A stretch of 64,000 nt of DNA from an uncultured bacterium (GTDB lineage Bacteria; Cyanobacteriota; Vampirovibrionia; Gastranaerophilales; Gastranaerophilaceae), in assembly GCA_902777605.1 (NCBI GenBank), contig CACYUI010000002.1, positions 33,337-97,336 of the forward strand. The letters are read 5' to 3'. The notes beneath the pieces were generated by a model, which did no database searches, was not told the DNA's origin, and saw only the letters and a program-made list of their open reading frames with translations. Below, one piece after another: positions 14,843-58,743 of this stretch. How positions within the stretch are numbered: position 1 is the stretch's first letter; every line of letters starts with the position of its first letter. The position numbers were made by a program, and so were the translations under genes.

Positions 14843-14904
14843 TTATCGGCATTTTTTTTTAAAACTTTAGAGAATTATGAAAAATCGTTACATAACTTTA
14901 CATA
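14843..14904 (-). promoter_or_regulatory. Sigma28 (FliA/SigD)-type promoter with HLR1-like repeat
   Basis: Coding strand TAAAGTTT-N11-GCCGATAA (exact sigma28 consensus, 14843-14869); HLR1 14887-14904 (GTTACATA-ac-TTTACATA) 17 nt upstream. Confidence 0.8.
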
Positions 14905-14990
14905 AATTTCTGAAAATCAATTATAATTTCATCTAAAAGAGTGATGAAAAAAATAATTAAATAATTTATCCTTCATATAGCGAGGTAAAT

Positions 14991-15227
14991 GTGAATATCA
15001 AACAACAACTAAAGAAAAAAATTCAGCTTAAAGAACTAGAAATTAAGAAACTAAAGCTCCATGAGTCCTCTTCTGAAATCTGTGCACAATTATATAATAC
15101 ACTTATTTTAGAAAAAGCTATTTTAAAAAAGGAGCTAGATGACACTAAGAAAAACCCTATAATTGAAAAAATAAAAAAAGTACTCCCAAAACGCGAAAAG
15201 CTTATTTGCGATTATTTTAAAGAATAA
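14991..15227 (+). CDS. Small hypothetical coiled-coil protein
   Basis: GAGGT RBS, GTG start, 78 aa, Lys/Leu rich. Confidence 0.55.
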   Translation: MNIKQQLKKKIQLKELEIKKLKLHESSSEICAQLYNTLILEKAILKKELDDTKKNPIIEKIKKVLPKREKLICDYFKE

Positions 15228-15241
15228 TACATAATTTTTCT

Positions 15242-15404
15242 GGATTACTTCGTCGCTTCGCTCCTCGTAATGACACCTTCTGTCATTGCGAGAAAATCTT
15301 AATTTCCACATCAATACATTTTATTTTGGATTATTTCATCGCTTCGCTCCTCGTAATGACACTTTCTGTCATTGCGAGAAAATCTTTGATTTTCGCGGCA
15401 ATCT
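15242..15404. repeat. Tandem TGTC-tagged palindromic repeat halves
   Basis: Right halves GGATTACTTCGTCGCTTCGCTCCTCGTAATGACA at 15242-15275 and 15328-15361; left halves TGTCATTGCGAGAAAATC at 15281 and 15367. Confidence 0.85.
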
Positions 15405-15419
15405 ATATACAATTAAAGT

Positions 15420-15719
15420 ATGAACAAAGAAAAACAATATTATGTATATATTTTATTCAGTAAATATAATGGTACATTGTATGTTGGCGTAACTAATAAT
15501 CTTATAAGAAGGGTTTGGGAGCATAAAAATAAGATACTAAAAGGCTTTACTGAAAAATATAATGTTGATAAATTGGGCTATTTTGAAGCATGTGGAGATA
15601 TAAATTCAGCTATTGCAAGAGAAAAGCAATTAAAAGCAGGTAATAGAAAAAATAAGCTACTTTTAATAGAAAAGATGAATCCTTCATGGAAAGATTTGTA
15701 CTATGAAATAATCAAATAA
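15420..15719 (+). CDS. Small GIY-YIG nuclease (YhbQ/UPF0213-like)
   Basis: YYVYIL...LYVGVTNNLIRRVWEHK...FTEKYNVDKLGYFE...AIAREKQLK...NPSWKDL. Confidence 0.9.
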   Translation: MNKEKQYYVYILFSKYNGTLYVGVTNNLIRRVWEHKNKILKGFTEKYNVDKLGYFEACGDINSAIAREKQLKAGNRKNKLLLIEKMNPSWKDLYYEIIK

Positions 15720-15730
15720 TTATTTTTTTG

Positions 15731-15764
15731 GGATTACTTCGTCGCTTCGCTCCTCGTAATGACA
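15731..15764. repeat. Third right-half repeat copy
   Basis: Identical to 15242-15275. Confidence 0.85.
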
Positions 15765-15824
15765 TGGTATTTAATTCTTTGCGTATAGTTTTTGTTTATG
15801 ATATAATTATCTTAGAGGGGAATT

Positions 15825-16772
15825 ATGCATATAGATTACGATACTAAAAAGTCTATTAGAGGGGCATTTGGAGAAGAATTAGCAGAGCTTGGCAGTAAAA
15901 ATAAAGAAATTGTTGCTTTAGATGCTGATTTGTCAGGTTCTACAAAGTCTTCAACTTTCGCAAAAGCATATCCGGAAAGATTTTTTAATGTAGGCATTGC
16001 TGAGCAAGATTTGATTACTACTGCATTAGGTCTTTCTTTAACAGGCAAAATACCATTTGCATCTACTTTTGCAGTTTTTGCAACAGGCAGGGCATATGAC
16101 CAAATCAGAAATTCTATATGTTATCAAAAAGCTAATGTAAAAATAGTGGGTGCTCATGGCGGAATTACTGTTGGTGAAGACGGAGCAAGCCATCAAGCGT
16201 TAGAGGACATCGCTCTTATGCGTGAACTTCCTAACATGACAGTTATTGCTCCTGCAGATTATGAACAGATGAGGCAAGCTGTTAGATTTGCCGCTGAATA
16301 TAACGGACCGGTTTATATACGCTCATCAAGAGTCGATGTTCCTTGCATTTATGGAAATGATTATAAATTTAATCCTAAAAAAGCAGAAATTTTAATTGAA
16401 GGTAATGATATTACAATTTTGTCGTACGGTGATATTTTTGCAGAAGTTATTAAAGCTGCCGAAATATTGAAAGATAAAGGTATAAACGCTGAAGTTATAA
16501 ATGTTCCGGTAGTTAAACCGTTAGATACTGAAACAATCATTAAAAGTGTAAAAAAAACAAAAAGAGTTTTCACAGTAGAAAATCATTCTATTATAGGCGG
16601 CTTAGGCTCTGCCGTTTGTGAAACACTCGCAGAAGAAATGCCTACAAAAGTAACAAGAATTGGTATTAATGATACATTCGGGCAAAGCGGAACTCCAAAA
16701 GAATTGCTTAAGTTTTATGGTTTGGATGCTGATAGTATAGCAAGCAGAATACTTAAAGAAAAAGATATTTAA
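15825..16772 (+). CDS. Transketolase, C-terminal subunit
   Basis: DADLSGST, NVGIAEQ, RAYDQIR, GEDGASHQALED, ENHSIIGGLGS. Confidence 0.92.
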   Translation: MHIDYDTKKSIRGAFGEELAELGSKNKEIVALDADLSGSTKSSTFAKAYPERFFNVGIAEQDLITTALGLSLTGKIPFASTFAVFATGRAYDQIRNSICYQKANVKIVGAHGGITVGEDGASHQALEDIALMRELPNMTVIAPADYEQMRQAVRFAAEYNGPVYIRSSRVDVPCIYGNDYKFNPKKAEILIEGNDITILSYGDIFAEVIKAAEILKDKGINAEVINVPVVKPLDTETIIKSVKKTKRVFTVENHSIIGGLGSAVCETLAEEMPTKVTRIGINDTFGQSGTPKELLKFYGLDADSIASRILKEKDI

Positions 16773-16788
16773 TGGTGACAGAGGGAAA

Positions 16789-17466
16789 ATGATACAATTA
16801 AGGTCAGTTACAAAAAAATATAAAAATAATTATGCTCTAAAAAATATTAATTTAGATATATTGTCAGGCGAATTTGTTTTTATTACAGGCGCTTCAGGTG
16901 CGGGTAAATCTACGCTTATGAAAATGCTTTATAAAGAAGAAACTCCGACAACAGGAACAGTATTAATTGGAGGAATTAATATTGCAAATCTGCCGCCAGA
17001 GAAAGTTCCTAACCTAAGGCGTTGTATGGGAATTGTTTTTCAGGATTACAAATTACTTCAAAATCAATCAGTATATGATAATATAGCATATGTCATAAGA
17101 ACTTTAGGTATAAGTTCATCAGACATTAGAACTCGCGTAAACGGTGCTTTAAGAGTTGTTGGACTTTTAGATAAAGCTAAAGCTAAACCTAGCGAGTTAT
17201 CCGGTGGTGAACAACAAAGAGTAAGCATTGCAAGAGCTCTTGTAAATGGTCCGCCACTTTTAATCGCTGATGAGCCTACTGGGAATTTAGATCCAAAAAA
17301 CTCTTTAGAAGTTATGCAAATTCTTGAACAAATTAATCAAAGAGGTATTACAGTCATAGTATCTACTCATGATTTCACATTAGTTGATAGGTTTAGAAAA
17401 AGAGTTTTAACCCTAGAAAATGGTGAGATAGTGAGAGATATTCAAGCAGGTACTTATGGACAATAG
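16789..17466 (+). CDS. ftsE: Cell division ATP-binding protein FtsE
   Basis: GASGAGKST, GIVFQDYKLL, LSGGEQQRV, ADEPTGNLDP; precedes ftsX. Confidence 0.92.
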   Translation: MIQLRSVTKKYKNNYALKNINLDILSGEFVFITGASGAGKSTLMKMLYKEETPTTGTVLIGGINIANLPPEKVPNLRRCMGIVFQDYKLLQNQSVYDNIAYVIRTLGISSSDIRTRVNGALRVVGLLDKAKAKPSELSGGEQQRVSIARALVNGPPLLIADEPTGNLDPKNSLEVMQILEQINQRGITVIVSTHDFTLVDRFRKRVLTLENGEIVRDIQAGTYGQ

Positions 17467-18364
17467 CAGACAAAATATTAAAAAAACAGTTAAAAAGCAC
17501 ATCCCAAAAGATTGGCTCTGTGAATTGCGTATTGCATATAGAATCGTAATGGAAGCGGTTAATGATGTTAGAAGAACAGGAATCGTAAACCTTATAATTA
17601 TAACAACAATGGCTGCAATTCTTACAATCTTCGGTGTTCTGTTTAGATTTACACTATCATTATCAACTTTTACTCATGAATTAGGTAATGTATTAGAAAT
17701 TTCTGTTTACTTAAAACAAGGCACTGATAACGGTATTATTAAGGATAGAATAAAAGAGATTAAACATGTTGAACGCGTTCATCTTATAACAAAAGAAACA
17801 TCATGGAATAGTTTAAAACAGGAGCTTGGATTACATGACATAACGAATCCTCTCCCTGATACAATAAGAGTTAAAGTTGATAAACCTGATAATATTGAAG
17901 GTGTTTATAATCAAATTAAACCAATGGCCGGAGTTGAGGAGCTTGGATATGCTAAAGAACTTGCAAAAAAAATGCAGGTTCTGACAAATGTTGTTAATAC
18001 ATCTATGATTTTTGTAATAATTATATCGGCAGCATTGACTATAACGATAATAAATAATACAATACAATTAGTAATTCAATCGAGAAAAGATGAGATTGAA
18101 ATTATGCGTTTAATGGGTGTCAGTAACTGGTATATTAAAACACCACTAGTAATTCAGGGTGCATTCTACGGTTTTGTTTCATCTGTGATTGCGGTGTTAC
18201 CATTAAATGGTGTGCAAGGGCTTTTACAAAATGTGCATAAATTTTTCTTAATACCGTCTCCTGCATATGCACAAGATGTTGTTATTACTACTTTATTATT
18301 AATAGGTATAGCATTTGGAGCAAGTGGAAGTTTATTATCAATTAAAAAACACTTACAAGTATAG
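17456..18364 (+). CDS. ftsX: Cell division permease FtsX
   Basis: EISVYL, NPLPDTIRVK, NNTIQLVIQSRKDEIEIMRLMGVSNWYIKTP. Confidence 0.9.
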   Translation: MDNSRQNIKKTVKKHIPKDWLCELRIAYRIVMEAVNDVRRTGIVNLIIITTMAAILTIFGVLFRFTLSLSTFTHELGNVLEISVYLKQGTDNGIIKDRIKEIKHVERVHLITKETSWNSLKQELGLHDITNPLPDTIRVKVDKPDNIEGVYNQIKPMAGVEELGYAKELAKKMQVLTNVVNTSMIFVIIISAALTITIINNTIQLVIQSRKDEIEIMRLMGVSNWYIKTPLVIQGAFYGFVSSVIAVLPLNGVQGLLQNVHKFFLIPSPAYAQDVVITTLLLIGIAFGASGSLLSIKKHLQV

Positions 18365-18378
18365 AAAAGAAGGTAAAA

Positions 18379-19176
18379 ATGGATAAAACAATTGAACTTG
18401 TTAATAATATTAAAGACATACAAGCAATGCCAAGCGTTATTGTAAAAGCTTTAAATATTATGAAAAAACCTACCGCTAATATGAAAGAGCTTGGAGATAT
18501 TGTTATGTTTGACCAATCTCTTACTATAAAATTTTTGGCTCTTGTTAACTCTGCTTATTATGGCTTTTCACAACAAATAAGTTCAATAAACATTGCTTTA
18601 TCACTTCTTGGCATGACCAAAGTAAAAAATATTATTGTTGCTGTTGCAATGAAACCAATGATGTCAAATGCTGGAGACAAAGAGCTTTGGAAACATTCAA
18701 TGAGGGTTGCTTGCGGTTGTGAATATCTTGCAAATTTGACCAAAATTATGGACTCAGATGAAGCTTTTATATCAGGTTTTATTCATGATGTAGGGAAAAT
18801 TGTATTACATAAAACAAATGATAAAATGTATGCAAAAGTAATATCACTAGTTGAAGAAGGCGGTGATATCTTAACATTAGAAAAAAAATACTTTGATTCT
18901 GATCATGTAAGAACAGGTTCATTGCTTGCTAAAAGATGGCAATTGCCTATTTTGCTTTCAAATATTATATCATATCACCATGCTCCATCTTTATCATCTG
19001 TGCCTGTTCCATGTAATTTAGTTTGTTTTGTAGATAAAATTGTACAAACTAATTTTAATTCAAGTGCAATAGACAAAGATTTTGCGAAAACAATGGGCAT
19101 TGATGAAGAAGATTTTGAAGATTTAAGAAAAGCTATTTTACAAAAATCTGAAGTCTTAATTGCTGAATTATCATAA
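18379..19176 (+). CDS. HDOD domain signalling protein
   Basis: AMPSV, DQSLTIKFLALVNSAYYG, AFISGFIHDVGKIVL, DHVRTGSLLAKRWQLP. Confidence 0.88.
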   Translation: MDKTIELVNNIKDIQAMPSVIVKALNIMKKPTANMKELGDIVMFDQSLTIKFLALVNSAYYGFSQQISSINIALSLLGMTKVKNIIVAVAMKPMMSNAGDKELWKHSMRVACGCEYLANLTKIMDSDEAFISGFIHDVGKIVLHKTNDKMYAKVISLVEEGGDILTLEKKYFDSDHVRTGSLLAKRWQLPILLSNIISYHHAPSLSSVPVPCNLVCFVDKIVQTNFNSSAIDKDFAKTMGIDEEDFEDLRKAILQKSEVLIAELS

Positions 19177-26454: not shown

Positions 26455-26527
26455 GCGTCCTTAGTTCAGTTGGTAGAACGTCGGTCTCCAAAACCGGATG
26501 TCGAGGGTTCGAGTCCTTCAGGGCGCG
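26455..26527 (+). tRNA. trnW: tRNA-Trp (CCA)
   Basis: GCGTCCT/AGGGCGC acceptor stem, anticodon loop CTCCAAA, GGTTCGAGTCC T-arm; canonical position between rpmG and secE; 3' CCA not encoded. Confidence 0.95.
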
Positions 26528-31116: not shown

Positions 31117-31869
31117 ATGAGTAAAATAAAAACTTTTTTGGGGATAGTTGGTGTAACGCTATTATCAGCACTACCGGTAAATGCTGCAATGACATTTCCT
31201 AATATAAATATAGGTTTACAACAAGCAAATACACCACAAGATTTTACAAACGGATTACAAATTCTTATTTGGTTAACTATATTAACACTTGCACCAAGTA
31301 TTTTAATTATGGCAACAAGTTTTTTAAGAATTGTTGTCGTTTTAGCTATTACAAGACAAGCAATCGGTGCCGGTAATTTACCGCCAAGTCAAGTAATCAC
31401 AAGTTTAGCATTAATTTTAACTTTTTTTATAATGGCGCCTACATTTAATCAAATAAATGAGAATGCACTTCAACCTTATATGAAGAATCAAATAACACAG
31501 CAAGCTGCTCTTGATAGAGGAATTATCCCTATTAGGAACTTTATGTTTAAACAAACTCATGAAAAAGAGCTTGCACTGTTTGTAAGAATGGCTAAAATTG
31601 AAAAACCTAAAACAAAGGATGATGTTCCCACATATATTTTATTACCCTCATTTATTTTAAGTGAGTTAAAAACAGCATTCACAATAGGTTTTGTAGTTTA
31701 TTTGCCGTTTTTGGTCATAGATATAGTTGTATCATCTGTATTGGTATCAATGGGTATGATGTTTCTGCCACCTACAATGATTGCGCTGCCTTTTAAACTG
31801 ATTATGTTTGTTATGGTAGACGGATGGTACTTGGTTGTAAAATCACTTGTAGAAAGTTTTGTTACATAG
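31117..31869 (+). CDS. fliP: Flagellar export gate protein FliP
   Basis: N-terminal signal peptide (flagellar-type), TSFLRIVVVLAITRQAIG, PPSQV, SELKTAF, DIVVSSVLVSMGMMFLPP, PFKLIMFVMVDGW. Confidence 0.93.
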   Translation: MSKIKTFLGIVGVTLLSALPVNAAMTFPNINIGLQQANTPQDFTNGLQILIWLTILTLAPSILIMATSFLRIVVVLAITRQAIGAGNLPPSQVITSLALILTFFIMAPTFNQINENALQPYMKNQITQQAALDRGIIPIRNFMFKQTHEKELALFVRMAKIEKPKTKDDVPTYILLPSFILSELKTAFTIGFVVYLPFLVIDIVVSSVLVSMGMMFLPPTMIALPFKLIMFVMVDGWYLVVKSLVESFVT

Positions 31870-31889
31870 ACATAATAGGATTATAATAA

Positions 31890-32165
31890 ATGAATCAAGA
31901 TATAGTTATTACTCTTTTACAAAAAATGTTTATACTTACATTAGAAATGTCAGTTCCAATACTTCTTGTCGGTGTTGTATTGGGCTTGATGGTAAGTATT
32001 TTTCAAACTGTAACACAAATTCAGGAATCAACACTTACATTCGTACCAAAGATTGTAGGTTGTGTTATTCTGCTTATTTTCTTAATGCCTTGGATGTTCA
32101 GCGTCTTTGTTAGTACTGTTAATGAATTTATGAGTATGATTCCACAATTAATCGGTGGGGCATAA
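31890..32165 (+). CDS. fliQ: Flagellar export gate protein FliQ
   Basis: GLMVSIFQTVTQIQESTLTFVPK. Confidence 0.93.
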   Translation: MNQDIVITLLQKMFILTLEMSVPILLVGVVLGLMVSIFQTVTQIQESTLTFVPKIVGCVILLIFLMPWMFSVFVSTVNEFMSMIPQLIGGA

Positions 32166-32944
32166 TGTTTAATCTTGATGTACTATTCTCCGTTAGTAAT
32201 ATTATTTTATTTATGGCCATAATTACAAGAATAAGCGGGCTGTTTGCATCTGCGCCAATCTTTTCTACTTATCCGATACCACAGATGGCAAAAATTTGGT
32301 TAGCAGCATTGATAGCATTTATATTGTTCCCGATTGTGCAATATAATACACACTTTACAGTACCTAATTCAGTACCTGCGCTAACTTTAATATTATTTAA
32401 AGAATTTTTGATTGGTTTTGCAATGGGATTTTGCGCAAATATTATCTTTGTAGGAATTGAGCTTGGTGCGAATATGTTTGCAGTTCAAATGGGACTTTCT
32501 GCAGATCAAGCATTGAACCCGACATCGGGAGGAAGCTCACCTGTTATTACACAAGTATACACATATCTAGCGGCAATGTTATTCCTTGCCCTCGGTGCAC
32601 ACCAATGGCTTTTTGCTGCAATATACAACAGTTTTAAAACTTTACCTATAGGATACTCTCTAACATTCTCTCCTGAACTTGTTGGACAAATAGTAACTAT
32701 AACAAGTCAAATGTTTGGTATTGGTTTAGGAATTGCACTTCCGATTTTCGGTATATTATTTATTACAGATGTATTATTAGGTTTTACATCAAAAATGATG
32801 CCTCAAATGAACATTTTTATGGTATCAATGCCGTTGAAAATATATTTAGGATTGCTTTTATCATTAATGTTTATGCGACCAATGGCAGAATACATGTCAG
32901 TTTTAATAGAAAGATTTTTAACAAATATTATGTTAATGTTTTAG
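32165..32944 (+). CDS. fliR: Flagellar export gate protein FliR
   Basis: RISGLFASAPIFS, KEFLIG, QMGLS, GFTSKMMPQMNIFMVSMPLK. Confidence 0.92.
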   Translation: MFNLDVLFSVSNIILFMAIITRISGLFASAPIFSTYPIPQMAKIWLAALIAFILFPIVQYNTHFTVPNSVPALTLILFKEFLIGFAMGFCANIIFVGIELGANMFAVQMGLSADQALNPTSGGSSPVITQVYTYLAAMLFLALGAHQWLFAAIYNSFKTLPIGYSLTFSPELVGQIVTITSQMFGIGLGIALPIFGILFITDVLLGFTSKMMPQMNIFMVSMPLKIYLGLLLSLMFMRPMAEYMSVLIERFLTNIMLMF

Positions 32945-32950
32945 GGTAAT

Positions 32951-34033
32951 ATGGGAAACGAAGCAGCAGAAAGAACAGAAGAAGCCACCGAGCGAAGGCG
33001 GCGTAAAGAACGAGATCGGGGTAATGTATCCAAAAGCCGTGATATGGATGCTGCTCTTGTTATGGTTACAGGTATCGGACTTCTTGCGATTTTTGGGAAA
33101 AAAATGTTTCAAACTATACTCACTATGATGAGAGAAACATTCTCAAATTTGAATCCAAACTCAATTGATGCTACTAATATACAAGGTCTATTACTTCCAT
33201 ATTTTAGATATTTAGCAGTAATTGTACTGCCATTTTTTGTTTTACTTATGATTTTTGCAATTATTATTATAAGAATGGATGTAGGCCCTGTTTTTGCACT
33301 TGAAAAAGTTAAATTTAATCCTGAGAATTTATCGCCAAGAAAATGGATACAAAATGCTAAGCGTTTAATTAATCCATTTGAGCCTCGTTCGTTAGTTGAA
33401 CTTGCAAAATCAATTTTAAAAATAGTAGTGGTTGCTGCTTGTGGTTATTCAGCAGTAAATGCAAGGCGTGGCGATTTGATGGGACTAATTGGTTTGGAAC
33501 CTTCGGTTGCATTACATATAATTTTAACTGTATTAATAAATATGATTATAAACATGTGTCTTGCAATGCTTATATTAGGTTATATTGATAAAAAATATCA
33601 GCATTACGAGTACGAAAAATCTATCAAGATGACTAAACAAGAAATTAAGGATGAACAAAAAGATACTGAAGGAGACCCCAAAGTTAAAGCAAGAATAAAG
33701 TCGATACAAATGCAAATGGCTCGTCAACGCATGATGTCTTCTGTACCGGGAGCAGATGTGGTTGTAACAAACCCTACGCACTATGCTGTTGCAATTAAAT
33801 ATGATAAGACAAAAGCTCCTGCACCAATGGTAGTTGCAAAAGGTGTTGATTATTTAGCATTTGAAATTAAACAAATGGCAAAGGAGCACGGTGTTCCTAT
33901 TGTTGAAAACAGACCTGTTGCAAGAGCACTTTATAATACAGTACCTGTTGACGGTGTTATACCTTCTGATTTGTATGTTGCAGTAGCTGAAATACTTGCT
34001 TATGTTTATAAACAGAAGAACGGCGAAGGCTAA
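32951..34033 (+). CDS. flhB: Flagellar export substrate-switch protein FlhB
   Basis: ERTEEATERRR, KMTKQEIKDEQKDTEGDPKVK, NPTH autocleavage site, PIVENRPVARAL. Confidence 0.95.
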   Translation: MGNEAAERTEEATERRRRKERDRGNVSKSRDMDAALVMVTGIGLLAIFGKKMFQTILTMMRETFSNLNPNSIDATNIQGLLLPYFRYLAVIVLPFFVLLMIFAIIIIRMDVGPVFALEKVKFNPENLSPRKWIQNAKRLINPFEPRSLVELAKSILKIVVVAACGYSAVNARRGDLMGLIGLEPSVALHIILTVLINMIINMCLAMLILGYIDKKYQHYEYEKSIKMTKQEIKDEQKDTEGDPKVKARIKSIQMQMARQRMMSSVPGADVVVTNPTHYAVAIKYDKTKAPAPMVVAKGVDYLAFEIKQMAKEHGVPIVENRPVARALYNTVPVDGVIPSDLYVAVAEILAYVYKQKNGEG

Positions 34034-34116
34034 TATATATTAGTACAAATATATGAAAATATTGTTACAAATTGCTAATTTAACGCAAAGAGTGATATTA
34101 TATAGTTGGTGGAGAG

Positions 34117-36210
34117 ATGGAATTAGGTAAACTTGCAAAACTATTGAGCAATAATGATATAGTCCTTGCTATTGGCTTGGTCATTATTGTCGTTATGATG
34201 GTTATTCCGATTCCGGCTCCTTTTTTGGATTTATTACTTACAATTAATATATCCCTCGCTGTTGTAATTCTTTTGGTTTGTTTATATACACAAGAACCGC
34301 TTGATTATTCATCTTTTCCGACAGTATTATTAATAGCAACACTTTTTCGTTTAGGTTTAAATGTAAGCTCCACTCGTTTAATTCTTTTAAATGGAGAAGC
34401 TGGTAATGTTATTAATTCTTTTGGAGAATTTGTTGTCGGTGGTAATTATGTTGTCGGTGCAGTCATATTTTGTATCTTAGTATTAATCAACTTTATGGTT
34501 ATCACCGGTGGTGCAACTCGTGTAGCTGAAGTTTCTGCTCGTTTTACATTGGATAAAATGCCAGGTAAACAATTGAGTATCGATGCTGACTTAAACTCTG
34601 GTTTAATCAACGAAGATCAAGCAAAAGAAAGGCGCAAAAAGCTTGAAAGAGAAACTGATTTCTATGGTACTATGGATGGTGCTTCTAAATTTGTTAAAGG
34701 TGATGCAACAGCAGGTATTGTAATAACTATAATTAACATTGTCGGTGGTTTAGTAATTGGTGTTATACAGCTACACATGAATGTTCAAACAGCATTATCG
34801 ACTTATACTATATTAACAGTTGGTGATGGTCTTGTATCACAAATTCCAGCACTTCTTATTTCTACCGCTACAGGTTTAATTGTATCAAGAGCATCAGGAA
34901 AAGAAGAATCTTTATCACAAGACATAAAAAATGAAATGTTCTCAGATCCGAGGGTGCTTGGTGTTGTATCAGGTTTATTAGGTTTTATGGGAATTGTCCC
35001 CGGTATGCCTACTATACCATTTTTAACTATTGCATTGATAGCAGGCGGACTTGCATTTTATAAATCAAAACAAAAAGTTGTTGCAAAAGAAACTCAAGAA
35101 GCCGAAAAAATTGCACAAGAAAAACAAGAACAGCTTGGCAAGAAAGAAAGTCGTGCTAAAGCTACCAGAGAAAGCGTTATGGAACTTCTTAATGTTGATA
35201 CAATTGAAATTGAAGTCGGGTATCGGCTTGTTCAATTACTTAATGTTGAGATGGGAGGTGACTTATTAGAGCGTATTGCTCAAATAAGAAGACAAACAGC
35301 ACTTGATTTAGGTATAATTTTACCTTCAATAAGAGTCAGAGATAACTTACAGCTTTCACCAAATTCTTATCAAATCAAATTAAAGGGAGTTGCATTAGAA
35401 TCCGGTGAAGTTTATCCGGAAAGATTTTTAGCAATGTCAGCCGGTGATCCGGTAGGGAATTTAGCAATAAACGGCATCCATGCTATAGAACCGGCTTTTG
35501 GTCTTCCTGCTTTGTGGATTGAAGCTAAGGATAAAGATATGGCTGAAATGTCAGGATTTACAGTCGTTTCTGCATCTGCAGTAATTTCTACTCACATAAC
35601 AGAGGTTATCAAAAAATGTGCTTCTGAAATACTTTCAAGATTTGATGTTCAACAACTTATTGATAATCTTAAAAAAGAAGTTTCTGAAGATTATGTTGAA
35701 GATATTATGAAAGATATAACCATTGGTGATGTACAGCTTGTAATGCAGAATTTGCTTAAAGAAGGTGTTGCTGTAAGAGACTTAAAAACAATACTGGAAA
35801 CAATGAGTGTTCAAGCTAAAATTAATAAGAATCCCGGGTATCTTACTGAACATGTTCGTCAAGCATTATCAAGAAATATTTGCAAACAAAATCTTGGTGA
35901 CACAGGTGAGTTATATGTAATAACACTGGCTCCGGATGTAGAAAATACTATTGCAAAAGGTGCAAGTCCTGATGGACAAAGTGTAACCCTTGATCCTTCA
36001 TTCACGCGAAATATGTTTGATAAGATGAATTTAGAGCTTGAGAAAGCTATTACCGCAACAGGAAATCAACCAGTTATATTATGTTCTTCACCAATTCGTC
36101 TGTTATTCAGAAAGCTTGTCGAAAGAACTTATCCACAAATTGCGATTATGTCATATAATGAAATAAGTCCAAATGTAAAAGTAAAATCAGTCGGTATGGT
36201 AAAAGTTTAA
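34117..36210 (+). CDS. flhA: Flagellar export protein FlhA
   Basis: FPTVLLIATLFRLGLNVSSTR, RVAEVSARFTLDKMPGKQLSIDADL, DFYGTMDGASKFVKGDA, LPSIRVRDN. Confidence 0.96.
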   Translation: MELGKLAKLLSNNDIVLAIGLVIIVVMMVIPIPAPFLDLLLTINISLAVVILLVCLYTQEPLDYSSFPTVLLIATLFRLGLNVSSTRLILLNGEAGNVINSFGEFVVGGNYVVGAVIFCILVLINFMVITGGATRVAEVSARFTLDKMPGKQLSIDADLNSGLINEDQAKERRKKLERETDFYGTMDGASKFVKGDATAGIVITIINIVGGLVIGVIQLHMNVQTALSTYTILTVGDGLVSQIPALLISTATGLIVSRASGKEESLSQDIKNEMFSDPRVLGVVSGLLGFMGIVPGMPTIPFLTIALIAGGLAFYKSKQKVVAKETQEAEKIAQEKQEQLGKKESRAKATRESVMELLNVDTIEIEVGYRLVQLLNVEMGGDLLERIAQIRRQTALDLGIILPSIRVRDNLQLSPNSYQIKLKGVALESGEVYPERFLAMSAGDPVGNLAINGIHAIEPAFGLPALWIEAKDKDMAEMSGFTVVSASAVISTHITEVIKKCASEILSRFDVQQLIDNLKKEVSEDYVEDIMKDITIGDVQLVMQNLLKEGVAVRDLKTILETMSVQAKINKNPGYLTEHVRQALSRNICKQNLGDTGELYVITLAPDVENTIAKGASPDGQSVTLDPSFTRNMFDKMNLELEKAITATGNQPVILCSSPIRLLFRKLVERTYPQIAIMSYNEISPNVKVKSVGMVKV

Positions 36211-36224: not shown

Positions 36225-36818
36225 ATGAGAGAGTTAATAAAAAATGACCAGTTAGTAACAATTGTTCCTCAAGATTTTAAGAATACAAACAAAGGAAAAG
36301 TACTTAATGTTTCAATAGATGGATTTAAAATGGAGTTAAAATATAAACCGGAAGGACTATTTGTTAATCATATTTGTGATTTTTACTCATTTACTGATAA
36401 CGGATATTTATATTTCGAATCATATATTCAATCATTAGAAAATAACATTATAACCATTGCAAATCCGGTAAAACATAGATTCTTACAAAGGCGTAAGTTT
36501 ACTCGTATCAAATTTATTGAAGAATTGGAGCTAACATGTAATAACATTACTCATAAAATTAGAACTCTTGACTTGTCAGCAGGAGGAATGAAAATTCAGA
36601 CACAGGAGAATATTGATATTGAAACTGAGTATAATGTTAGTCTCAAGCTAAGTGATGAACAAGAAATTAAGTGTAAATATCAATTAATAAGAATTGAAAA
36701 AGGTGATAACGGATTATACACAATATCAGGAAGATTTACATCTCTAAGTAACATTGATAAAATGACTTTAGTTCAGTTCTGTATGAAAAAAGACATGGAA
36801 AATATTAATAAGAAATAA
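36225..36818 (+). CDS. PilZ-domain (YcgR-like) c-di-GMP receptor
   Basis: QRRKFTR (RxxxR) and DLSAGGM (DxSxxG). Confidence 0.85.
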   Translation: MRELIKNDQLVTIVPQDFKNTNKGKVLNVSIDGFKMELKYKPEGLFVNHICDFYSFTDNGYLYFESYIQSLENNIITIANPVKHRFLQRRKFTRIKFIEELELTCNNITHKIRTLDLSAGGMKIQTQENIDIETEYNVSLKLSDEQEIKCKYQLIRIEKGDNGLYTISGRFTSLSNIDKMTLVQFCMKKDMENINKK

Positions 36819-40209: not shown

Positions 40210-40285
40210 TGGTGGGCGTTACAAGACTCGAACTTGTGACCCTCTGAATGTCGTTCAGATGCGCTACCAACTGCGCCAAACGCCC
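40210..40285 (-). tRNA. trnV: tRNA-Val (GAC)
   Basis: GGGCGTT/AACGCCC acceptor + ACCA, D-arm GCGC/GCGC, anticodon stem TCTGA/TCAGA with loop ACGACAT, T-loop TTCGAGT; 76 nt. Confidence 0.9.
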
Positions 40286-42715: not shown

Positions 42716-43150
42716 TTAGCCTCCTTGAAGTAATCCTGTGTCTTGAGCTGCTGTAGAAGTTGCTGTCTTTGCAGATTCTTTTTGAGCTCTTAATTCTTCA
42801 AGCATTGTATCCATTGTTTGTCTCATTGTATCGTAATCAATATCTAAGTCTTCTAATTCTTCTAACAATTCTTCGTTAAATTGTTTTACTTTTGCGTGTG
42901 CATATGCATCTGCTATCGAAGTATTTTGGTTATCTATTGCAACTGTGATGCTGCCACATCTTTTTTCTTTATCATTGCCAATAGCATCATCGTAAGCTTT
43001 TTCCCATTTTTCTTCGTACTTAACTTGCTCTTCAAGTTTTGCACTTACGCCTTCATATTTACTATTCCAATAAATAGATTGCTGAGTATAATAGTTTATG
43101 TCTGCATTGATTGCTAATAAATTTCCTAATAAAGCTGCTGTGTTTGACAT
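42716..43150 (-). CDS. Lineage-specific helical protein (144 aa), homolog of 57533-58645
   Basis: AAGG RBS; N-terminal LLAINA; C-terminal DIDYD...MDT...ES.K motif shared with 57533-58645. Confidence 0.75.
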   Translation of the reverse strand: MSNTAALLGNLLAINADINYYTQQSIYWNSKYEGVSAKLEEQVKYEEKWEKAYDDAIGNDKEKRCGSITVAIDNQNTSIADAYAHAKVKQFNEELLEELEDLDIDYDTMRQTMDTMLEELRAQKESAKTATSTAAQDTGLLQGG

Positions 43151-43176: not shown

Positions 43177-43245
43177 CATATATATAAAGTATTTAAAAAT
43201 TATTGAATTTCAAAAAGGTTTTATTTTGTTACAAAAGTTTACATT
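43177..43245 (-). promoter_or_regulatory. Class-A promoter with HLR1-like direct repeat
   Basis: HLR1 43228-43245 (GTTACAAA-ag-TTTACATT) - 14 nt - TTGAAA - 16 nt - TACTTTATATATATG. Confidence 0.7.
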
Positions 43246-53593: not shown

Positions 53594-54421
53594 ATGGATA
53601 GATATAGGTTAATTGGAAGTATAATTTTTCTATATGTGATGCTTTTAACAGAATATCCGTTACCTACTATTATAACAACGATTGTGATTATTGCAGCATA
53701 CTTGATTATCAGATTTGCACCAAATATCGGTGCAAACAATAAAGGCTTTTACAATATACATTCTAATAGAGGAGCTAGATTAGCTGCATTGGATGTAGCA
53801 GCAATATATCTATCACCTTATACAGACATTTGGCGAAATCTTAAGCTAACCAACAAGAATTGCATTGCAATATTAGGACATAACGGAGAAAGAATTGTAG
53901 TCAGAGAAAAAACGCATAATACTAATGCTCCCTATAGAACATTCCGTATTATACAATCTAAAAGGTATAATATGCAAGAAGTTTGGAATATGTTTTGCTT
54001 AAATTTTGATTACCATACAACTTATGATGATTTAGTATTTAAGTGTAAAGAACTTTTTAAAGTATCAATATTAGAAAGTTATAACGGCAACACATCTGTA
54101 TCAAGCACTGCTTCTAAAATTTATAAGAACAATAAATCCGTAATTGAAAACAACACAAGCAATGATAATATCAAAAAAGTTGATATTAATAATGCATCAG
54201 AGATTGAATTAACGGAGCTTCCGGGAATAAGTATTGTAATATCTAAAAAGATAATAAAAAAACGAGAAGAAATAAACGGTTTTAAAAATATTCATGACTT
54301 CTTCATGTTTATCAAAGTTAAACCTCACATGGAAGAACAATTAAAAGATAAAATATGTGTAAATGAAATGAAAGGTTCACTAAAAATTGAGCGTTTTCAG
54401 GAAAGGCATATTGATTTTTAA
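53594..54421 (+). CDS. Membrane protein with C-terminal ComEA-like helix-hairpin-helix
   Basis: Two N-terminal TM helices; VDINNASEIELTELPGISIVISKKII. Confidence 0.75.
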   Translation: MDRYRLIGSIIFLYVMLLTEYPLPTIITTIVIIAAYLIIRFAPNIGANNKGFYNIHSNRGARLAALDVAAIYLSPYTDIWRNLKLTNKNCIAILGHNGERIVVREKTHNTNAPYRTFRIIQSKRYNMQEVWNMFCLNFDYHTTYDDLVFKCKELFKVSILESYNGNTSVSSTASKIYKNNKSVIENNTSNDNIKKVDINNASEIELTELPGISIVISKKIIKKREEINGFKNIHDFFMFIKVKPHMEEQLKDKICVNEMKGSLKIERFQERHIDF

Positions 54422-55237
54422 ATGGATATAATTAATTTGATTGATATTATAGTTATCATATTTGTTTTATTAGTTATATATATAGCTAGAAGTATAGAAC
54501 GAAAAAATATTCAAAAGCGTTCAGAATTAGAAAGACGCTTGCACATTTTTATGAATCAAGGAAAAATTAAAAACAGACTAATAAACGCCAACTGTGAAAT
54601 ACGACTTATAAACATTGGGTCATTAACTAAAAACAATAATTTAGTATTGTTCTGCAAAGAGCACCCACTACCGGGTAGATTAGGCAAAAAATTTACATTA
54701 TCTGATACAAGAGAGCATGTTGCTACTATATGGGCAATGTTCAACATGGAATTTAATAATGCAACAAATATTAATTCTTTAAAGACATTATACGCTCTGC
54801 TAAACCCAAGATACAAATATTTATTGAATGAAAATAGTAAAACTTATGAAAACCTATTGCCTGAAAATATGGCAGAAAATGAATATTGCAGAATGGAACT
54901 GGTACAACAAAAACTAAACGAATTTGTATTAATTGTATATGATATTTGGGATTGTTCTGAAGAACCAAGAAATTTTATAATAAAAGGAAGTTATGACTAT
55001 CTCAACAGAATATTAACAGAATTTAAATTGAAAAAAAATAAATTTAGAATGTTTTATGAAATAAAAAATGATTATCAATTACAAAATGATAATGAAGTTA
55101 TAGTAAAACCTCAAGATGAAATTGTTAATCCTGAATCAAACGAAAAGACAGTTTACAGTAATGAAAAGGAAAATTTTTATAAAAATACTATTGAACAATA
55201 TATTCAAAAGAATAACGAGAGAAAGCTGGATTTATAG
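54422..55237 (+). CDS. Hypothetical membrane-anchored protein, partial paralog of 53594-54421
   Basis: N-terminal TM; shared WxMFxxxFxxxT motif; C-terminal ERKLDL versus ERHIDF. Confidence 0.65.
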   Translation: MDIINLIDIIVIIFVLLVIYIARSIERKNIQKRSELERRLHIFMNQGKIKNRLINANCEIRLINIGSLTKNNNLVLFCKEHPLPGRLGKKFTLSDTREHVATIWAMFNMEFNNATNINSLKTLYALLNPRYKYLLNENSKTYENLLPENMAENEYCRMELVQQKLNEFVLIVYDIWDCSEEPRNFIIKGSYDYLNRILTEFKLKKNKFRMFYEIKNDYQLQNDNEVIVKPQDEIVNPESNEKTVYSNEKENFYKNTIEQYIQKNNERKLDL

Positions 55238-55834
55238 ATGAAGCTTAGAGTATATAATATTGTAAAAAATACTAAAGTTGAAGGTCCTGAAACGAGATAT
55301 TGCATCTGGGTACAAGGATGCTCCAAACACTGCAAAGGATGTCAAGCTACTCATACTTGGTCACACAATGGCGGTAGATTATATAAAGTAAGTGATATTA
55401 TAGACGATATAAAATTTCACAAAAATAAGGTTGAAGGAGTAACCTTTCTAGGTGGTGAACCTTTTGAACAATCAGAGGCATTGGGAATAATAGCAGAAGA
55501 AGTCCAAAAAATGGGACTTGGAGTTTTATGTTTTACTGGAAATTTATTGGAAGATTTACTTAAAAACAAAAAACATACAAAACTTCTTAAAAATACTGAT
55601 TTACTTATTGACGGCGCATTTGAAAAAGACAAAGTTGATTATTCGCGTCCTTGGTGCGGATCCTCAAATCAAAGATACCATTTTTTATCAAAAAGATATA
55701 ATGAAGAAATTTTTACAAAATACAAAAACAAAGTAGAAGTTAACATAAATCCTAATGGCATAGTTTTTATGAACGGAATGGGAAATTTTGAAAAAATTCT
55801 CAAAAAAATTGATTTGAAAAATATCGAAAAATAA
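55238..55834 (+). CDS. NrdG-like radical SAM / 4Fe-4S single-cluster protein
   Basis: VEGPETR...WVQGCSKHCKGC (CxxxCxxC), GVTFLGGEPFEQ, DLLIDG, WCGSSNQ. Confidence 0.85.
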   Translation: MKLRVYNIVKNTKVEGPETRYCIWVQGCSKHCKGCQATHTWSHNGGRLYKVSDIIDDIKFHKNKVEGVTFLGGEPFEQSEALGIIAEEVQKMGLGVLCFTGNLLEDLLKNKKHTKLLKNTDLLIDGAFEKDKVDYSRPWCGSSNQRYHFLSKRYNEEIFTKYKNKVEVNINPNGIVFMNGMGNFEKILKKIDLKNIEK

Positions 55835-55865
55835 GAGAAGGTACACTATTATGTACCTTCTCTTA
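55832..55865. terminator. Hairpin between convergent genes
   Basis: TAAGAGAAGGTACA-ctatta-TGTACCTTCTCTTA. Confidence 0.7.
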
Positions 55866-55882
55866 CATATATTTCATTAAAA

Positions 55883-57346
55883 TTAAATATTAGCAAGTTT
55901 CTTATAGTAATCATGTGATTGCTCAAACTTATAAGCAAAGTTAAATAATTTAGCTTCTGCCAGTTGAGGTGCCATTATTTGCAGTCCTATCGGCATACCA
56001 TCTTTATCAAACCCAGCCGGTATTGAAATAGCAGGTATTCCTGAAAGATTTGCACCAATAGTGGCAATATCTGTCAAATACATAGCGAGCGGATCCTCTG
56101 TTTTTGAACCTAAGTCAAAAGCTGTATTAGGGCATGTTGGTGCTATTAGTACATCTACTTGTTCAAAAGCCTTCAAAAAGTCTTCGTGAACAACTCTTCT
56201 CATTTGCAAGGCTTTTTTATAATATGCATCATAATATCCTGAGCTTAAAGCATATGTCCCAAGCATTATACGGCGTTTAACTTCAGGCCCAAACCCTTCT
56301 GCACGAGATTTGCAATAAAGTTCGAGCAAATTCTTAGCATCAGGAGTCCTGTGACCGTATCTTACACCATCGAATCTGGCTAAGTTAGAACTACATTCCG
56401 CTGTTGCTAGGATATAATAAATACCAATTGAATGCTTTATATTTGGTAAAGAAATTTCAATAATTTCTGCACCTATTGATTTATATGTATCAATTGCACC
56501 TTGAATTGCTTTTGATACATCTTCTGATAAGCCTTCACCGACAAGTTCTTTAACTACACCGACTTTCAATCCTTTAATATCATTATTTAAACTCTTTCTG
56601 TAATTTTCCACAGGAAGATTAAGTGAAGTAGAGTCATGATAATCATAACCCGATATAACCTCTAAAAGAGCAGCTGCATCTTCTACAGTTCTAGCAAATG
56701 GACCTATTTGGTCAAGAGATGATGCAAACGCAATCAAACCATACCTTGATACCTTACCGTACGTAGGTTTCATACCAACAATCCCACAGAAGCTTGCAGG
56801 TAAACGAATACTTCCACCTGTATCTGATCCTAATGCAAGCGTAGCTTCACAAGAAGCAACGGAAGCTGCAGAACCACCTGAAGAACCTCCCGGGACTTTA
56901 TTTAAATTCCAAGGATTATGAACTTTTTTAAACGCTGAGTTTTCATTAGAAGAACCCATCGCAAACTCATCTAAATTTGCTTTACCAACAATTGGAATTA
57001 AGTTATCCAAAAGTTTTTGTGTTGCAGTTGCGTTATATGGTGAGACAAAGTTCTCTAAAATTTTGCTGGATGCTGTAGTTTTAGAGCCTTTAAGGTTCAT
57101 GTTATCTTTCAGCGCAAGCGGTACCCCTGCAAGAAGCGGTAATTCTTCACCAGCTGCGATTTTTTCATCGACTTTTTTTGCAGTATTGAGTGCAATTTCC
57201 TCCGTTAATGAATTAAAAGCACCTAACTTTTCATCAACTGACTTAATTCTATCTAATGCAGCACTCGTAAGCTCAACTGCTGATACTTCTTTATTTTTAA
57301 GCGCTTCTGATTGTTCTATTGCGCTCTTCTTTAATATCTCTAGCAT
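55883..57346 (-). CDS. gatA: Asp/Glu-tRNA amidotransferase subunit A
   Basis: GKANLDEFAMGSS, PGGSSGGSAA, GSDTGGSIR, VSRYGLIAFASSLD, EVKRRIMLGTY. Confidence 0.97.
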   Translation of the reverse strand: MLEILKKSAIEQSEALKNKEVSAVELTSAALDRIKSVDEKLGAFNSLTEEIALNTAKKVDEKIAAGEELPLLAGVPLALKDNMNLKGSKTTASSKILENFVSPYNATATQKLLDNLIPIVGKANLDEFAMGSSNENSAFKKVHNPWNLNKVPGGSSGGSAASVASCEATLALGSDTGGSIRLPASFCGIVGMKPTYGKVSRYGLIAFASSLDQIGPFARTVEDAAALLEVISGYDYHDSTSLNLPVENYRKSLNNDIKGLKVGVVKELVGEGLSEDVSKAIQGAIDTYKSIGAEIIEISLPNIKHSIGIYYILATAECSSNLARFDGVRYGHRTPDAKNLLELYCKSRAEGFGPEVKRRIMLGTYALSSGYYDAYYKKALQMRRVVHEDFLKAFEQVDVLIAPTCPNTAFDLGSKTEDPLAMYLTDIATIGANLSGIPAISIPAGFDKDGMPIGLQIMAPQLAEAKLFNFAYKFEQSHDYYKKLANI

Positions 57347-57465
57347 ACTTTCTCCTTAGGGGCAAATCATCCCATACCCCACAACATTAATTATATCAAA
57401 AACAAAAATAGAAACAAAATTTTAGTATCTAACCTGCTACTATATTAGCTTATTAGGATTTTAAT

Positions 57466-57493
57466 AAAAAAAAAGCTTGAGTAAAACTCAAGC
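57466..57493 (-). terminator. Intrinsic terminator
   Basis: Minus strand GCTTGAGT-ttt-ACTCAAGC-T9. Confidence 0.8.
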
Positions 57494-57532
57494 GGAAAAA
57501 GGGAAAAGGGATTAAAAAGGGAAATCTTACAT

Positions 57533-58645
57533 CTATGAGAAGATACCGAATGTTCTTTCGATATTATCCTCAATAACTTTTTTGACAGAATCATACTCAG
57601 TTTTGAGAGCTGATCTTTCGGTTTCAAGTTTTGATAAATCCATATCAAATCTTTTATCTTTTTGGTCAATTTGTTTTCTTTTGTGTTCATACTCGGCTTC
57701 GGCTTTTGCATAAGCTGTTTTATCAATTGTTGTAGTTGCAACTTCTTCAAGACCTGAATCCGACGCAACAGTTGTAGCTTTGAACGAAACTTTACCTGTT
57801 TTAGAATCTCTTTCTGATACATCAACAATAATTTTTCCAGAACTAATCATTTGCTTTAACCATTCAGAATCATTTGCAGCATCACCGATTCCATCAATAC
57901 CATCAAATTCAGAAATTGCTACACATCCATTAGCTTGTTGAATTTCTTGGAAAATACGTACATAGTAATCAAATTCAGCGCTATCTTTGTCGGTAGGTTC
58001 ACCACCTATTGCATAATCATATACCTCACTGAAAGTGGAACTAAAGAATCTAAAATTGTATTCGTCTTCTAATGCTTGAAGTTTTTCTAAATCTTCATCA
58101 CTTATATCTTCATTATCACCATCTTCATCATATCCGATGTCTTCTTTGAATTTATCTATTTTACTTTGTATATTATCAAGATAAGATGTATTTTCTAATA
58201 AATCATACACATCCTCTTTTAATCCTATATAGTCATATTCATCTTCTATGTCAAACATAGCAAAAAGAGCAAATGCGTAAGGATCATTCTTATTAGCAGC
58301 AGAGCTATTTATAAAATCTTCATAATCTTCTTTTATCTGATCGGGAACAATAAGTCTACCCTTATCATCAATAAGTGCATATCTACCGTTTTTTGAATGA
58401 GGTACTACAAGTTCAGAACCATCAATTCCGCAAATATTATTAAAGTTAGCTGTAATTAAATTCCCTTGATAATCTTTAGCAACTAAAGTAGTAGCACTTG
58501 TAGCATTTAGGAAATCTTGGTATACCTGGTCTTCTTGTGTAGCCAGGGCAATCTTCGCGTTCTGAATACTTTGTGCTTGGTATTCAACGTCGTGCATTCT
58601 TGCTGTAATTGTTAGCAATCTAGCTTGCGATGCCGCCATTCCCAT
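57533..58645 (-). CDS. Lineage-specific helical protein (MGMAASQARLL family), 370 aa
   Basis: Start moved to ATG 58645 (AAGGA RBS); helical N-terminus MGMAASQARLLTITARM; helical C-terminus ending IERTFGIFS; acidic middle. Confidence 0.8.
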   Translation of the reverse strand: MGMAASQARLLTITARMHDVEYQAQSIQNAKIALATQEDQVYQDFLNATSATTLVAKDYQGNLITANFNNICGIDGSELVVPHSKNGRYALIDDKGRLIVPDQIKEDYEDFINSSAANKNDPYAFALFAMFDIEDEYDYIGLKEDVYDLLENTSYLDNIQSKIDKFKEDIGYDEDGDNEDISDEDLEKLQALEDEYNFRFFSSTFSEVYDYAIGGEPTDKDSAEFDYYVRIFQEIQQANGCVAISEFDGIDGIGDAANDSEWLKQMISSGKIIVDVSERDSKTGKVSFKATTVASDSGLEEVATTTIDKTAYAKAEAEYEHKRKQIDQKDKRFDMDLSKLETERSALKTEYDSVKKVIEDNIERTFGIFS

Positions 58646-58680
58646 AATTCTAATTTCCTTTTGTTGTCCCTTTGACATGT

Positions 58681-58743
58681 ATATCGGCATCTAAGGTTGA
58701 AAACTTTAGGATTTCACAGAATATTGTTACAAATCGTTACAAT
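58681..58743 (-). promoter_or_regulatory. Sigma28-type promoter with HLR1-like repeat
   Basis: TAAAGTTT-N12-GCCGATAT (58681-58708); HLR1 58726-58743 (GTTACAAA-tc-GTTACAAT) 17 nt upstream. Confidence 0.75.

Follow-up and report, generated by a model that had tools for sequence, protein, structure and literature searches.

The class 3 promoters read by sigma-28, such as that of fliC under FliA in Escherichia coli and Salmonella and that of hag under SigD in Bacillus subtilis, have the core TAAAGTTT-N11/12-GCCGATAA and, to our knowledge, need no activator. In cyanobacteria, control of a different kind is exerted through the HLR1 site, which is bound by the OmpR-family response regulator RpaB. 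This site consists of two repeats of 8 nucleotides (nt), (G/T)TTACA(T/A)(T/A), with a gap of 2 nt; in Synechocystis it activates transcription when located upstream of the promoter, approximately 50 nt upstream at the activating sites, and represses it when located near the start (Riediger et al. 2019, PMC6525291). Here we describe two promoters in which both elements are joined, in a stretch of 64 kilobases (kb) of DNA (hereafter, the window; ~32% G+C) from a gut member of the Gastranaerophilales (Melainabacteria), a non-photosynthetic sister lineage of the Cyanobacteria. One of them precedes the gene of a protein of 738 amino acids (aa) and the other that of a 370-aa protein. As classical class 3 promoters do without an activator, as far as we know, a fixed architecture of activator site and sigma-28 promoter is unusual.

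Several features of these promoters recall the described systems, and others set them apart. The core is the same as in class 3 promoters, and the lineage has sigma factors of the FliA/WhiG type. The hag leader carries GGA motifs for CsrA, and the 370-aa gene shares with the class 3 flagellin genes a GGA-bearing leader (in the case of hag), invariant termini of the product, a variable core and the presence of several copies. Unlike in class 3, the targets are not recognisably flagellar, the flagellin genes of the lineage lack such a promoter, a conserved regulator site is integral to the arrangement, and the -10 element in relatives is mostly GCCGTAA. With the RpaB-HLR1 regulon, the promoters described here share the 18-nt motif, which precedes the core promoter just as it does where RpaB activates, and in both cases promoters of proteins and of small RNAs are included (that of PsrR1 in Synechocystis, and in the present lineage that of a small RNA rich in C). 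Nevertheless, the host is non-photosynthetic, the targets are unrelated to photosynthesis or light, the partner is of the sigma-28 type, and the predicted centre of the box is at about -60 and not at about -50. Lastly, SigF of Synechocystis, a group 3 factor related to sigma-28, drives the gene of an abundant surface-filament subunit in a cyanobacterial lineage; at pilA1 it reads TAGGC at -32 and GGTAA at -12, distinct from sigma-28 (Asayama and Imamura 2008, PMC2532724), whereas our two sites follow the classical sigma-28 consensus, and the lineage has a sigma factor that scores as FliA/WhiG, not as SigF.

Two known elements, a sigma-28 promoter and an HLR1 site, are here attached to an undescribed protein family, and our literature search found no paper joining HLR1 with Melainabacteria. 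The pairing of box and promoter, which all the relatives examined have retained, suggests an undescribed regulon over a very large, hypervariable protein family. The explanation that we favour, with a probability of roughly 60%, is that a sigma-28 RNA polymerase and an activator of the OmpR/RpaB type, centred near -60, drive lineage-specific genes, whose products are probably exported or surface proteins.

Two sigma-28-type promoters in the window

An exact and a near-exact FliA consensus had been predicted in this DNA, and both were recovered at the positions given, though on the minus strand, by motif match, shuffles and a weight matrix (Table 1). Site 1, which precedes the 738-aa gene, is the exact sigma-28 consensus, and site 2, preceding the 370-aa gene, has a single deviation, the final A of the -10 element being replaced by T. 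Patterns of the TAAAGTTT-N11/12-GCCGATAA type occur twice in the window and not once in 100 dinucleotide-preserving shuffles. Moreover, when a weight matrix was built from 60 related promoters, all from other genomes, it gave scores of 28.5 and 30.9 to the two window sites, with the rest of the 64 kb remaining below 14 throughout. Judged by motif and matrix, both sites are sigma-28-type promoters beyond chance.

The claim that an HLR1 box lies 17 nt upstream of both promoters was likewise confirmed. The repeats are perfect in the window, where both boxes fit (G/T)TTACA(T/A)(T/A)-N2-(G/T)TTACA(T/A)(T/A) at every constrained position (on the transcribed strand, the box of site 2 reads ATTGTAAC-GA-TTTGTAAC), and the feature is conserved in relatives. 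The shorter pattern TTACA-N5-TTACA is found at five sites in the window against 0.56 expected, all of them intergenic and upstream of minus-strand genes. The three sites other than those at the sigma-28 cores belong to promoters of another, non-sigma-28 type, which we call class B.

The 370-aa and 738-aa genes form two separate transcription units, each bounded by a terminator, and the terminator of rpoC2 (~58835-58802) lies between rpoC2 and the promoter of the 370-aa gene. The latter gene starts at the ATG at 58645, not with the longer open reading frame from 58690; all homologues begin with MGMAASQARLL.

Conservation of box and core in relatives

Homologues of the 370-aa protein gave 410 matches in a species-level genome collection, of which the best 80 (loci L001-L080) were taken, so that with the window 81 upstream regions of family genes were compared; the orthologues of the 738-aa protein are loci L082-L084. 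The core T[AT]AAGnnn-N11/12-GCCGnnnn was found upstream of 81/81 family genes. The -35 element is TAAAGTTT in 71/81. At -10, 64/81 have either GCCGTAAA or GCCGTAAT and 10/81 have GCCGATAx; the end of the -10 element lies 31-46 nt upstream of the ATG. The sequence GCCGATA, which the original prediction had given as the -10 element, is right for both window sites, but most relatives carry GCCGTAA.

In 630 kb of DNA there are 93 core matches, and in 76 of these TGTAA[AC] ends 16-17 nt upstream. In approximately nine more it is found at 27 nt (a clade comprising L003, L005, L009, L010, L030, L031, L032, L058 and L080), that is, one helical turn further than 17 nt, so that the helical face of the box is preserved. 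The full HLR1 consensus is present in 40/76 related boxes, the promoter-proximal half being invariant. In addition, box, core and the leader motif CAAAGTAGGATTGTATTG are kept in 3/3 orthologues of the 738-aa protein, which share 31-52% identity. Retention of these promoters in genomes whose proteins are down to 31-35% identity indicates that box and core are under selection, and the presence of the core at 81/81 family genes and 3/3 orthologues bears out that the sites are not accidental. Further genes of relatives are preceded by a box and a sigma-28-type promoter, one encoding a protein of 121-133 aa (MTDGIGRLSGYGN, MTDGIGR...; -10 element GCCGTTA) and another a protein of 144-154 aa (MRKLKGITINGEW, MRKLKGITING...; -10 element GCCGATA). 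These additional targets are located in L012 (minus) and L036 (1438-1803), and in L042, L043, L061 and L064 (minus, near the locus end); they matched no family, and only four homologues were found.

The strict form of the box, TGTAA-N5-TGTAA, occurs 71 times in the same 630 kb, preceding a sigma-28 core in 48 instances and a class B motif in 14. In relatives, the class B consensus (box, N14, TGAAATT, N13, TATATACTTTATATATATGTAAGATG) is highly conserved, and such promoters were also found in L038, L040, L042, L046, L049, L052, L064, L072 and L075. Positions counted by eye indicate that box and -35-like and -10-like parts are spaced alike in class B and in the sigma-28 class, and in both classes the box centre would lie ~60 nt upstream of the predicted start. 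The proposed arrangement of activator plus sigma-28 stands as far as the conserved pairing is concerned, but the box is not peculiar to sigma-28, as it also heads class B. The three class B products of the window, of 84, 395 and 144 aa, have no match to any known family.

Direct repeats at a spacing of 10 base pairs are common for regulators of the OmpR/PhoB family, and a tandem repeat with this spacing, lying on one helical face and serving two promoter types, would fit a class I activator of that kind. Many members of the family bind such repeats, and it is possible, though in our judgement rather unlikely, that the TGTAAC repeat is bound by a factor other than RpaB (e.g., a repressor, a master regulator of motility or some other winged-helix regulator), or serves as an upstream element whose effect depends on its sequence, the likeness to HLR1 being convergent. 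About half of the promoters have a degenerate distal half-site, and the predicted centre, near -60/-70, is further upstream than the ~50 nt of activating HLR1 sites in Synechocystis. Convergence would nevertheless have to explain why both window sites and 40/76 related ones fit the full 18-nt HLR1, flanking A/T pairs included, why this occurs in a sister lineage of the Cyanobacteria that is reported to keep RpaB and NblS homologues, and why the box heads a small-RNA promoter too, as it does in cyanobacteria. An RpaB-type activator acting with sigma-28 remains the explanation that we prefer for the box.

Table 1. Positions of the promoters, genes and RNA elements within the window.
Feature	Position	Strand	Details
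Site 1, -35 element	14869..14862	minus	TAAAGTTT; motif match, shuffles
Site 1, -10 element	14850..14843	minus	GCCGATAA; 11-nt spacer; motif match, weight matrix
Site 1, HLR1-type box	14887..14904	promoter on minus	plus strand GTTACATA-AC-TTTACATA; ends 17 nt upstream of -35
738-aa gene, predicted leader	14788..14836	minus	CAAAGTAGGATTGTATTG motif and Shine-Dalgarno AAAGGAG; predicted start ~14836
738-aa protein gene	12571..14787	minus	N-terminal domain, Cys200, helical repeats, Cys-rich C-terminus
Terminator-like hairpin and T run	12507..12546	minus	3' of 738-aa gene; read by eye
Site 2, -35 element	58708..58701	minus	TAAAGTTT; motif match, shuffles
Site 2, -10 element	58688..58681	minus	GCCGATAT; 12-nt spacer; motif match, weight matrix
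Site 2, HLR1-type box	58726..58743		promoter on minus; plus strand GTTACAAA-TC-GTTACAAT; ends 17 nt upstream of -35
370-aa gene, predicted leader	58646..58674	minus	AAAGGGAC motif and Shine-Dalgarno AAAGGAA; predicted start ~58674
370-aa protein gene	57533..58645	minus	Gastranaerophilales-restricted family
C-rich 3' element	57494..57532	minus	AUGUAAGAUUUCCCUUUUUAAUCCCUUUUCCCUUUUUCC; complementary to G-rich leader, Shine-Dalgarno and start region
Intrinsic terminator	57466..57493	minus	GCTTGAGT-TTTA-CTCAAGC, then T run; 3' of C-rich element
Class B box	43229..43243	minus	box, N14, TGAAATT, N13, ATACTTTATATATATG; 144-aa coiled-coil gene 43150..42716
Class B box	10004..10018	minus	395-aa gene 9922..8735, product Gly-rich in N-terminal half
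Class B box	6843..6857	minus	84-aa gene 6765..6511
fliP, fliQ, fliR, flhB, flhA	31117..36210	plus	flagellar type III export genes; context

The target proteins, flagellin and the RNA elements

The 370-aa gene had been regarded as an orphan, which proved not to be the case: 3,368 clusters at 50% identity match the profile of its family, and the 370-aa protein itself has matches in over 2,000 clusters at 90% identity. Going by the best 80 of the 410 matches, the family was seen in this lineage only, with several copies per genome. Its members are strongly conserved at both ends: the commonest residue of an alignment column has an average share of 0.92 for residues 1-48 and 0.88 for residues 301-370, compared to 0.42 for residues 131-225; the last residues (...ERTFGIFS) are also conserved, while the centre is indel-rich and hypervariable. 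The AlphaFold2 model of the 370-aa protein, with a predicted local distance difference test (pLDDT) score of 81, places an alpha/beta core between two helices, at 3-49 and 309-367. Its description as an unrecognised helical protein was correct in that no known domain was found, but the protein is helical at its ends only, the hypervariable core being alpha/beta. No match was found in Pfam or NCBIfam at E <0.01-0.1, a sequence search of PDB gave nothing relevant, and Foldseek of the model against PDB and BFVD gave nothing significant (all E >0.001). The protein is without a Sec signal. A homology between this family and the small coiled-coil proteins of class B was considered and rejected, as hhalign gave it a probability of ~1%.

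That the sigma-28 promoters precede non-flagellin genes was upheld, with no flagellin match in Pfam or NCBIfam and no structural match; none of the sigma-28 targets has flagellar domains, and they do not resemble late flagellar or chemotaxis targets. The possibility that the 370-aa protein is a divergent flagellin was rejected, since neither Pfam and NCBIfam nor PDB, searched by sequence, nor Foldseek against PDB and BFVD gave a match, and canonical flagellins coexist with it. Their genes were found in L032 (minus), L046 (1965-3729), L068, L071 and L073, some of them less than 4 kb from a family gene, and their occurrence in the lineage is in line with the work of Di Rienzi et al. 2013 (PMC3787301). 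Within 700 nt upstream, the best matrix score is at most 3.5 for the flagellins of these five loci, and at least 17.7 (median 32.7) for the family promoters, the 95th percentile of random 700-nt windows being 7.1. In the examples examined, it is thus the new family, and not flagellin, that carries the sigma-28 consensus of the lineage. The leaders of the flagellin genes are long and, read by eye, show several GGA motifs in hairpin loops, similar to CsrA sites; a degenerate box is present further upstream of the L046 and L068 flagellins.

In spite of the lack of detectable homology, flagellins (Flagellin_N/Flagellin_C) and the 370-aa family are alike in conservation pattern, copy number, absence of a signal peptide and sigma-28 control. 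The model, however, has a single long helix at each end, unlike the four-helix D0/D1 arrangement of flagellin. Many Gastranaerophilales carry export genes without a full flagellum, and these have been proposed to serve secretion (10.64898/2026.04.24.720558). Considering this report together with the missing Sec signal, the flagellin-like conservation and the extreme diversification, the 370-aa protein is probably an exported or surface-exposed subunit, which may pass through the flagellar type III gate. The family would then be a candidate secreted or surface antigen, with possible relevance for the interaction with the host.

Gene neighbourhoods of the family mostly reflect ribosomal-protein and rpoBC synteny and are uninformative. 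In 25 loci (L033-L079), the family gene has a PMT_2 (GT-C) glycosyltransferase gene ~1.2 kb downstream in the same orientation, with rplJ-rplL coming next; synteny may be all there is to this, or it may hint at glycosylation of the family protein. The 524-aa polytopic membrane protein of the window (10014-11588) has no detectable relation to this glycosyltransferase.

The family could also be a putative filament subunit, either an analogue of flagellin or part of a second filament or sheath, which would be exported through the gate and polymerised via its terminal helices, leaving the core exposed. This idea, which we consider tentative, would account for the invariant extreme termini, the indel-rich core and the several paralogues per genome that make up the flagellin-like pattern, and also for the extreme diversification, the long terminal helices, the missing Sec signal, and the combination of a sigma-28 promoter with a GGA-bearing leader. 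It finds no counterpart in any detectable sequence or fold likeness to flagellin or other axial proteins, and it would have to accommodate canonical flagellins beside the family. The glycosyltransferase ~1.2 kb downstream in 25 loci would suit a filament as well, although this synteny may only mirror the close kinship of the genomes.

The second target in the window, the 738-aa protein, has a small N-terminal domain, followed by a weakly hydrophobic stretch (~180-200) that closes with an invariant Cys200, helical repeats from 215 to 700, and a Cys-rich C-terminus. Its homologues are few and diverge fast, and they show a lipobox-like L[AS][AS]C at the Cys position, ~170-250 residues from the N-terminus, which is an odd place for a lipoprotein signal. 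Foldseek returned matches to designed helical repeat proteins only. Overall, this looks like a membrane-anchored helical-repeat surface protein. A leader hairpin considered for its gene was dropped, because the 5' arm would fall upstream of the predicted start.

Conserved elements are also present in the transcript of the 370-aa family. The leaders contain AAAGGGAC and the Shine-Dalgarno AAAGGA, the start region is AUGGGAAUG, and nearly every family gene is followed, 4-260 nt past its stop, by UCCCUUUU(U)CCCUUUUUCC and a terminator (57532..57466 in the window). This C-rich 3' element is complementary to AAGGGAC, AAAGGA and AUGGGAAUG. The mean predicted energy of the duplex between leader and 3' element is -15.3 kcal/mol, compared to -6.9 for random 30-mers of the same loci and -11.8 for composition-matched shuffles. 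In Staphylococcus aureus icaR and in RNAs of the RsaE/RoxS type, a C-rich 3' untranslated region or UCCC motif pairs with the Shine-Dalgarno region. What recalls these RNAs is UCCC, which occurs in the 3' element and, in relatives, in a distinct small RNA as well, and which is complementary to AAGGGA and AAGGA in leader and Shine-Dalgarno; the pairing described here differs from them in being computed only, in being partly compositional and in having no Rfam match. Pairing of leader and 3' element is likely to add a further layer of control to the 370-aa gene, with the reservation that the complementarity is partly compositional.

In one clade, the family gene is preceded at a distance of ~170-340 nt by a C-rich, non-coding transcript of ~90 nt (GUAAGAUGUAAA...AAUCCCUAAAUCCCUUCCUAAC plus terminator) with its own class B promoter (L029, L035, L038, L040, L042, L043, L046, L047, L052, L059, L061, L064, L065 and L072). 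It appears related to the 3' element of the family. Rfam holds no known family for the C-rich element, the leaders or the ~90-nt transcript.

Sigma factor, regulator and competing explanations

The best 80 of the 410 homologues come from gut and rumen metagenome-assembled genomes of Gastranaerophilales, Melainabacteria or 'Vampirovibrio', with a few under other taxon labels. In the window, rpoC is split into rpoC1 and rpoC2 (58865-63897, minus), an arrangement as in Cyanobacteria. These lineage matches, the split rpoC and the genes fliPQR-flhBA together indicate a gut-dwelling, non-photosynthetic relative of the Cyanobacteria with a flagellar export apparatus, and a metagenome run from bovine gut contains the strain. 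As symbionts, Gastranaerophilales are widespread in the gut of humans, primates and ruminants; the analysis came across no cultured member. Among public RNA runs, none contained the window locus, and the sole run for a relative, from sheep rumen (L009), consists of short, low-depth contigs.

In two related genomes, a sigma factor gene of the FliA/WhiG type directly adjoins the family gene in divergent orientation (L018, 2961-3812, minus; L053, 1587-2402, minus). The two proteins score 228-230 bits with TIGR02479 (cutoff 189.6) and 211-215 bits with the FliA model NF005413 (cutoff 201), and only 84-88 bits with the cyanobacterial SigF model, whose cutoff is 261. The lineage consequently does possess a factor of the sigma-28 family. 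By tblastn over the loci of relatives, fliA was found in L018 and L053 only, and no flgM was identified. Judging from these two related genomes, the source genome is predicted to carry a fliA gene as well.

In the explanation that we favour, the core promoter would be read by a FliA-type RNA polymerase, recruited by a response regulator that sits on the box and acts from upstream in the manner of a class I activator. Both the state of sigma-28 and the signal of the regulator would then be required for expression, and the products of the 370-aa family would be exported or surface subunits, possibly passing through the flagellar gate. As a regulator, the best candidate would be the RpaB homologue of Melainabacteria known from the literature: homologues of RpaA, RpaB and NblS have been reported in this group, their role without photosynthesis being described as unknown (PMC3787301), and NblS orthologues of the lineage are documented in 10.1101/2025.01.21.633742. 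An HLR1-type box on more than 80 promoters offers a concrete, testable target set for the role of RpaB, RpaA and NblS, whose homologues in the group have been on record since 2013 (PMC3787301). The composite promoter would be a simple two-input system for study.

Several results weigh against this explanation. Neither the 64-kb window nor the adjoining 6.8 kb on its left gave a fliA gene, whose presence in this genome is predicted from relatives, and no OmpR-type regulator was found in ~650 kb of lineage DNA (nor a CsrA gene in the same DNA), so that the link to RpaB rests on the identity of the motif and on the literature. The -10 element of most relatives, GCCGTAA, is one base off register from GCCGATAA, and the five canonical flagellin loci have no sigma-28-type promoter in the 700 nt upstream. 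Neither window protein resembles any flagellar axial protein in sequence or structure. With regard to the RNA elements, the complementarity of 5' and 3' ends is largely compositional (z ~-1.4 against composition-matched shuffles). Lastly, the activity of the promoters and their -60 geometry are themselves predictions from sequence.

A sigma factor of the FliA/WhiG family may instead have been repurposed in this lineage for a non-flagellar surface or secretion regulon, the flagellar link being only historical, a scenario to which we give clearly less credit than to the one above. As most relatives carry GCCGTAA and the flagellins are without the promoter, the sigma factor may indeed not be tied to flagellar assembly here. 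In agreement with this, the canonical flagellins of five related loci lack such a promoter within 700 nt, every identified sigma-28-type target is without a known domain, fliA adjoins a family gene and not a flagellar cluster in L018 and L053, and ~75% of Gastranaerophilales genomes are reported to be without a full flagellar set (10.64898/2026.04.24.720558). Nevertheless, the window itself has fliPQR-flhBA, flagellar sigma-28 of distant phyla has an identical consensus, and a canonical flagellin lies less than 4 kb from a family gene at several loci, the comparison comprising five flagellin loci only. A textbook sigma-28 promoter on an unannotated hypervariable family changes what a 'flagellar sigma factor' predicts in this lineage.

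The explanation preferred here, sigma-28 polymerase with an OmpR/RpaB-type activator, can be extended further, on more speculative ground. An inherited NblS-RpaB system with a role other than in light, together with sigma-28, might switch on the hypervariable, multi-copy family, as subunits that the flagellar type III gate secretes or that polymerise through it, and also the small lineage proteins and the C-rich small RNA or 3' untranslated region, the latter feeding back on translation of the family; we hold this full version to be doubtful. If it were true, this would be the first RpaB regulon outside photosynthetic organisms, and the family would be a new kind of antigen, secreted or at the surface, of a gut symbiont that is widespread.

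Finally, that the motif matches are functionless chance products of an AT-rich genome, in which at ~32% G+C motifs rich in A and T are frequent, is to be regarded as already refuted by the conservation data, given 0 matches in 100 shuffles, retention in 81/81 and 3/3 cases in genomes with proteins down to 31-35% identity, and a fixed distance of the -10 end, 31-46 nt before the ATG.

A few further genes of the region may be mentioned. Directly after flhA, a PilZ-domain gene is found (36225-36818), perhaps with a role in signalling, e.g., related to cyclic-di-GMP, and an HDOD/HD-domain gene (18379-19176), perhaps also of signalling function, adjoins the gene of a 399-aa protein without a family match. 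Past the left end of the window (L081, 13488-17928), a GAF-HD protein, a TPR protein and two response regulators of the NarL/GerE type are encoded in a row. In addition, Rfam identified a large bacterial signal recognition particle RNA (8403-8659, minus) and tRNAs at 26455-26527 (plus) and 40213-40285 (minus).

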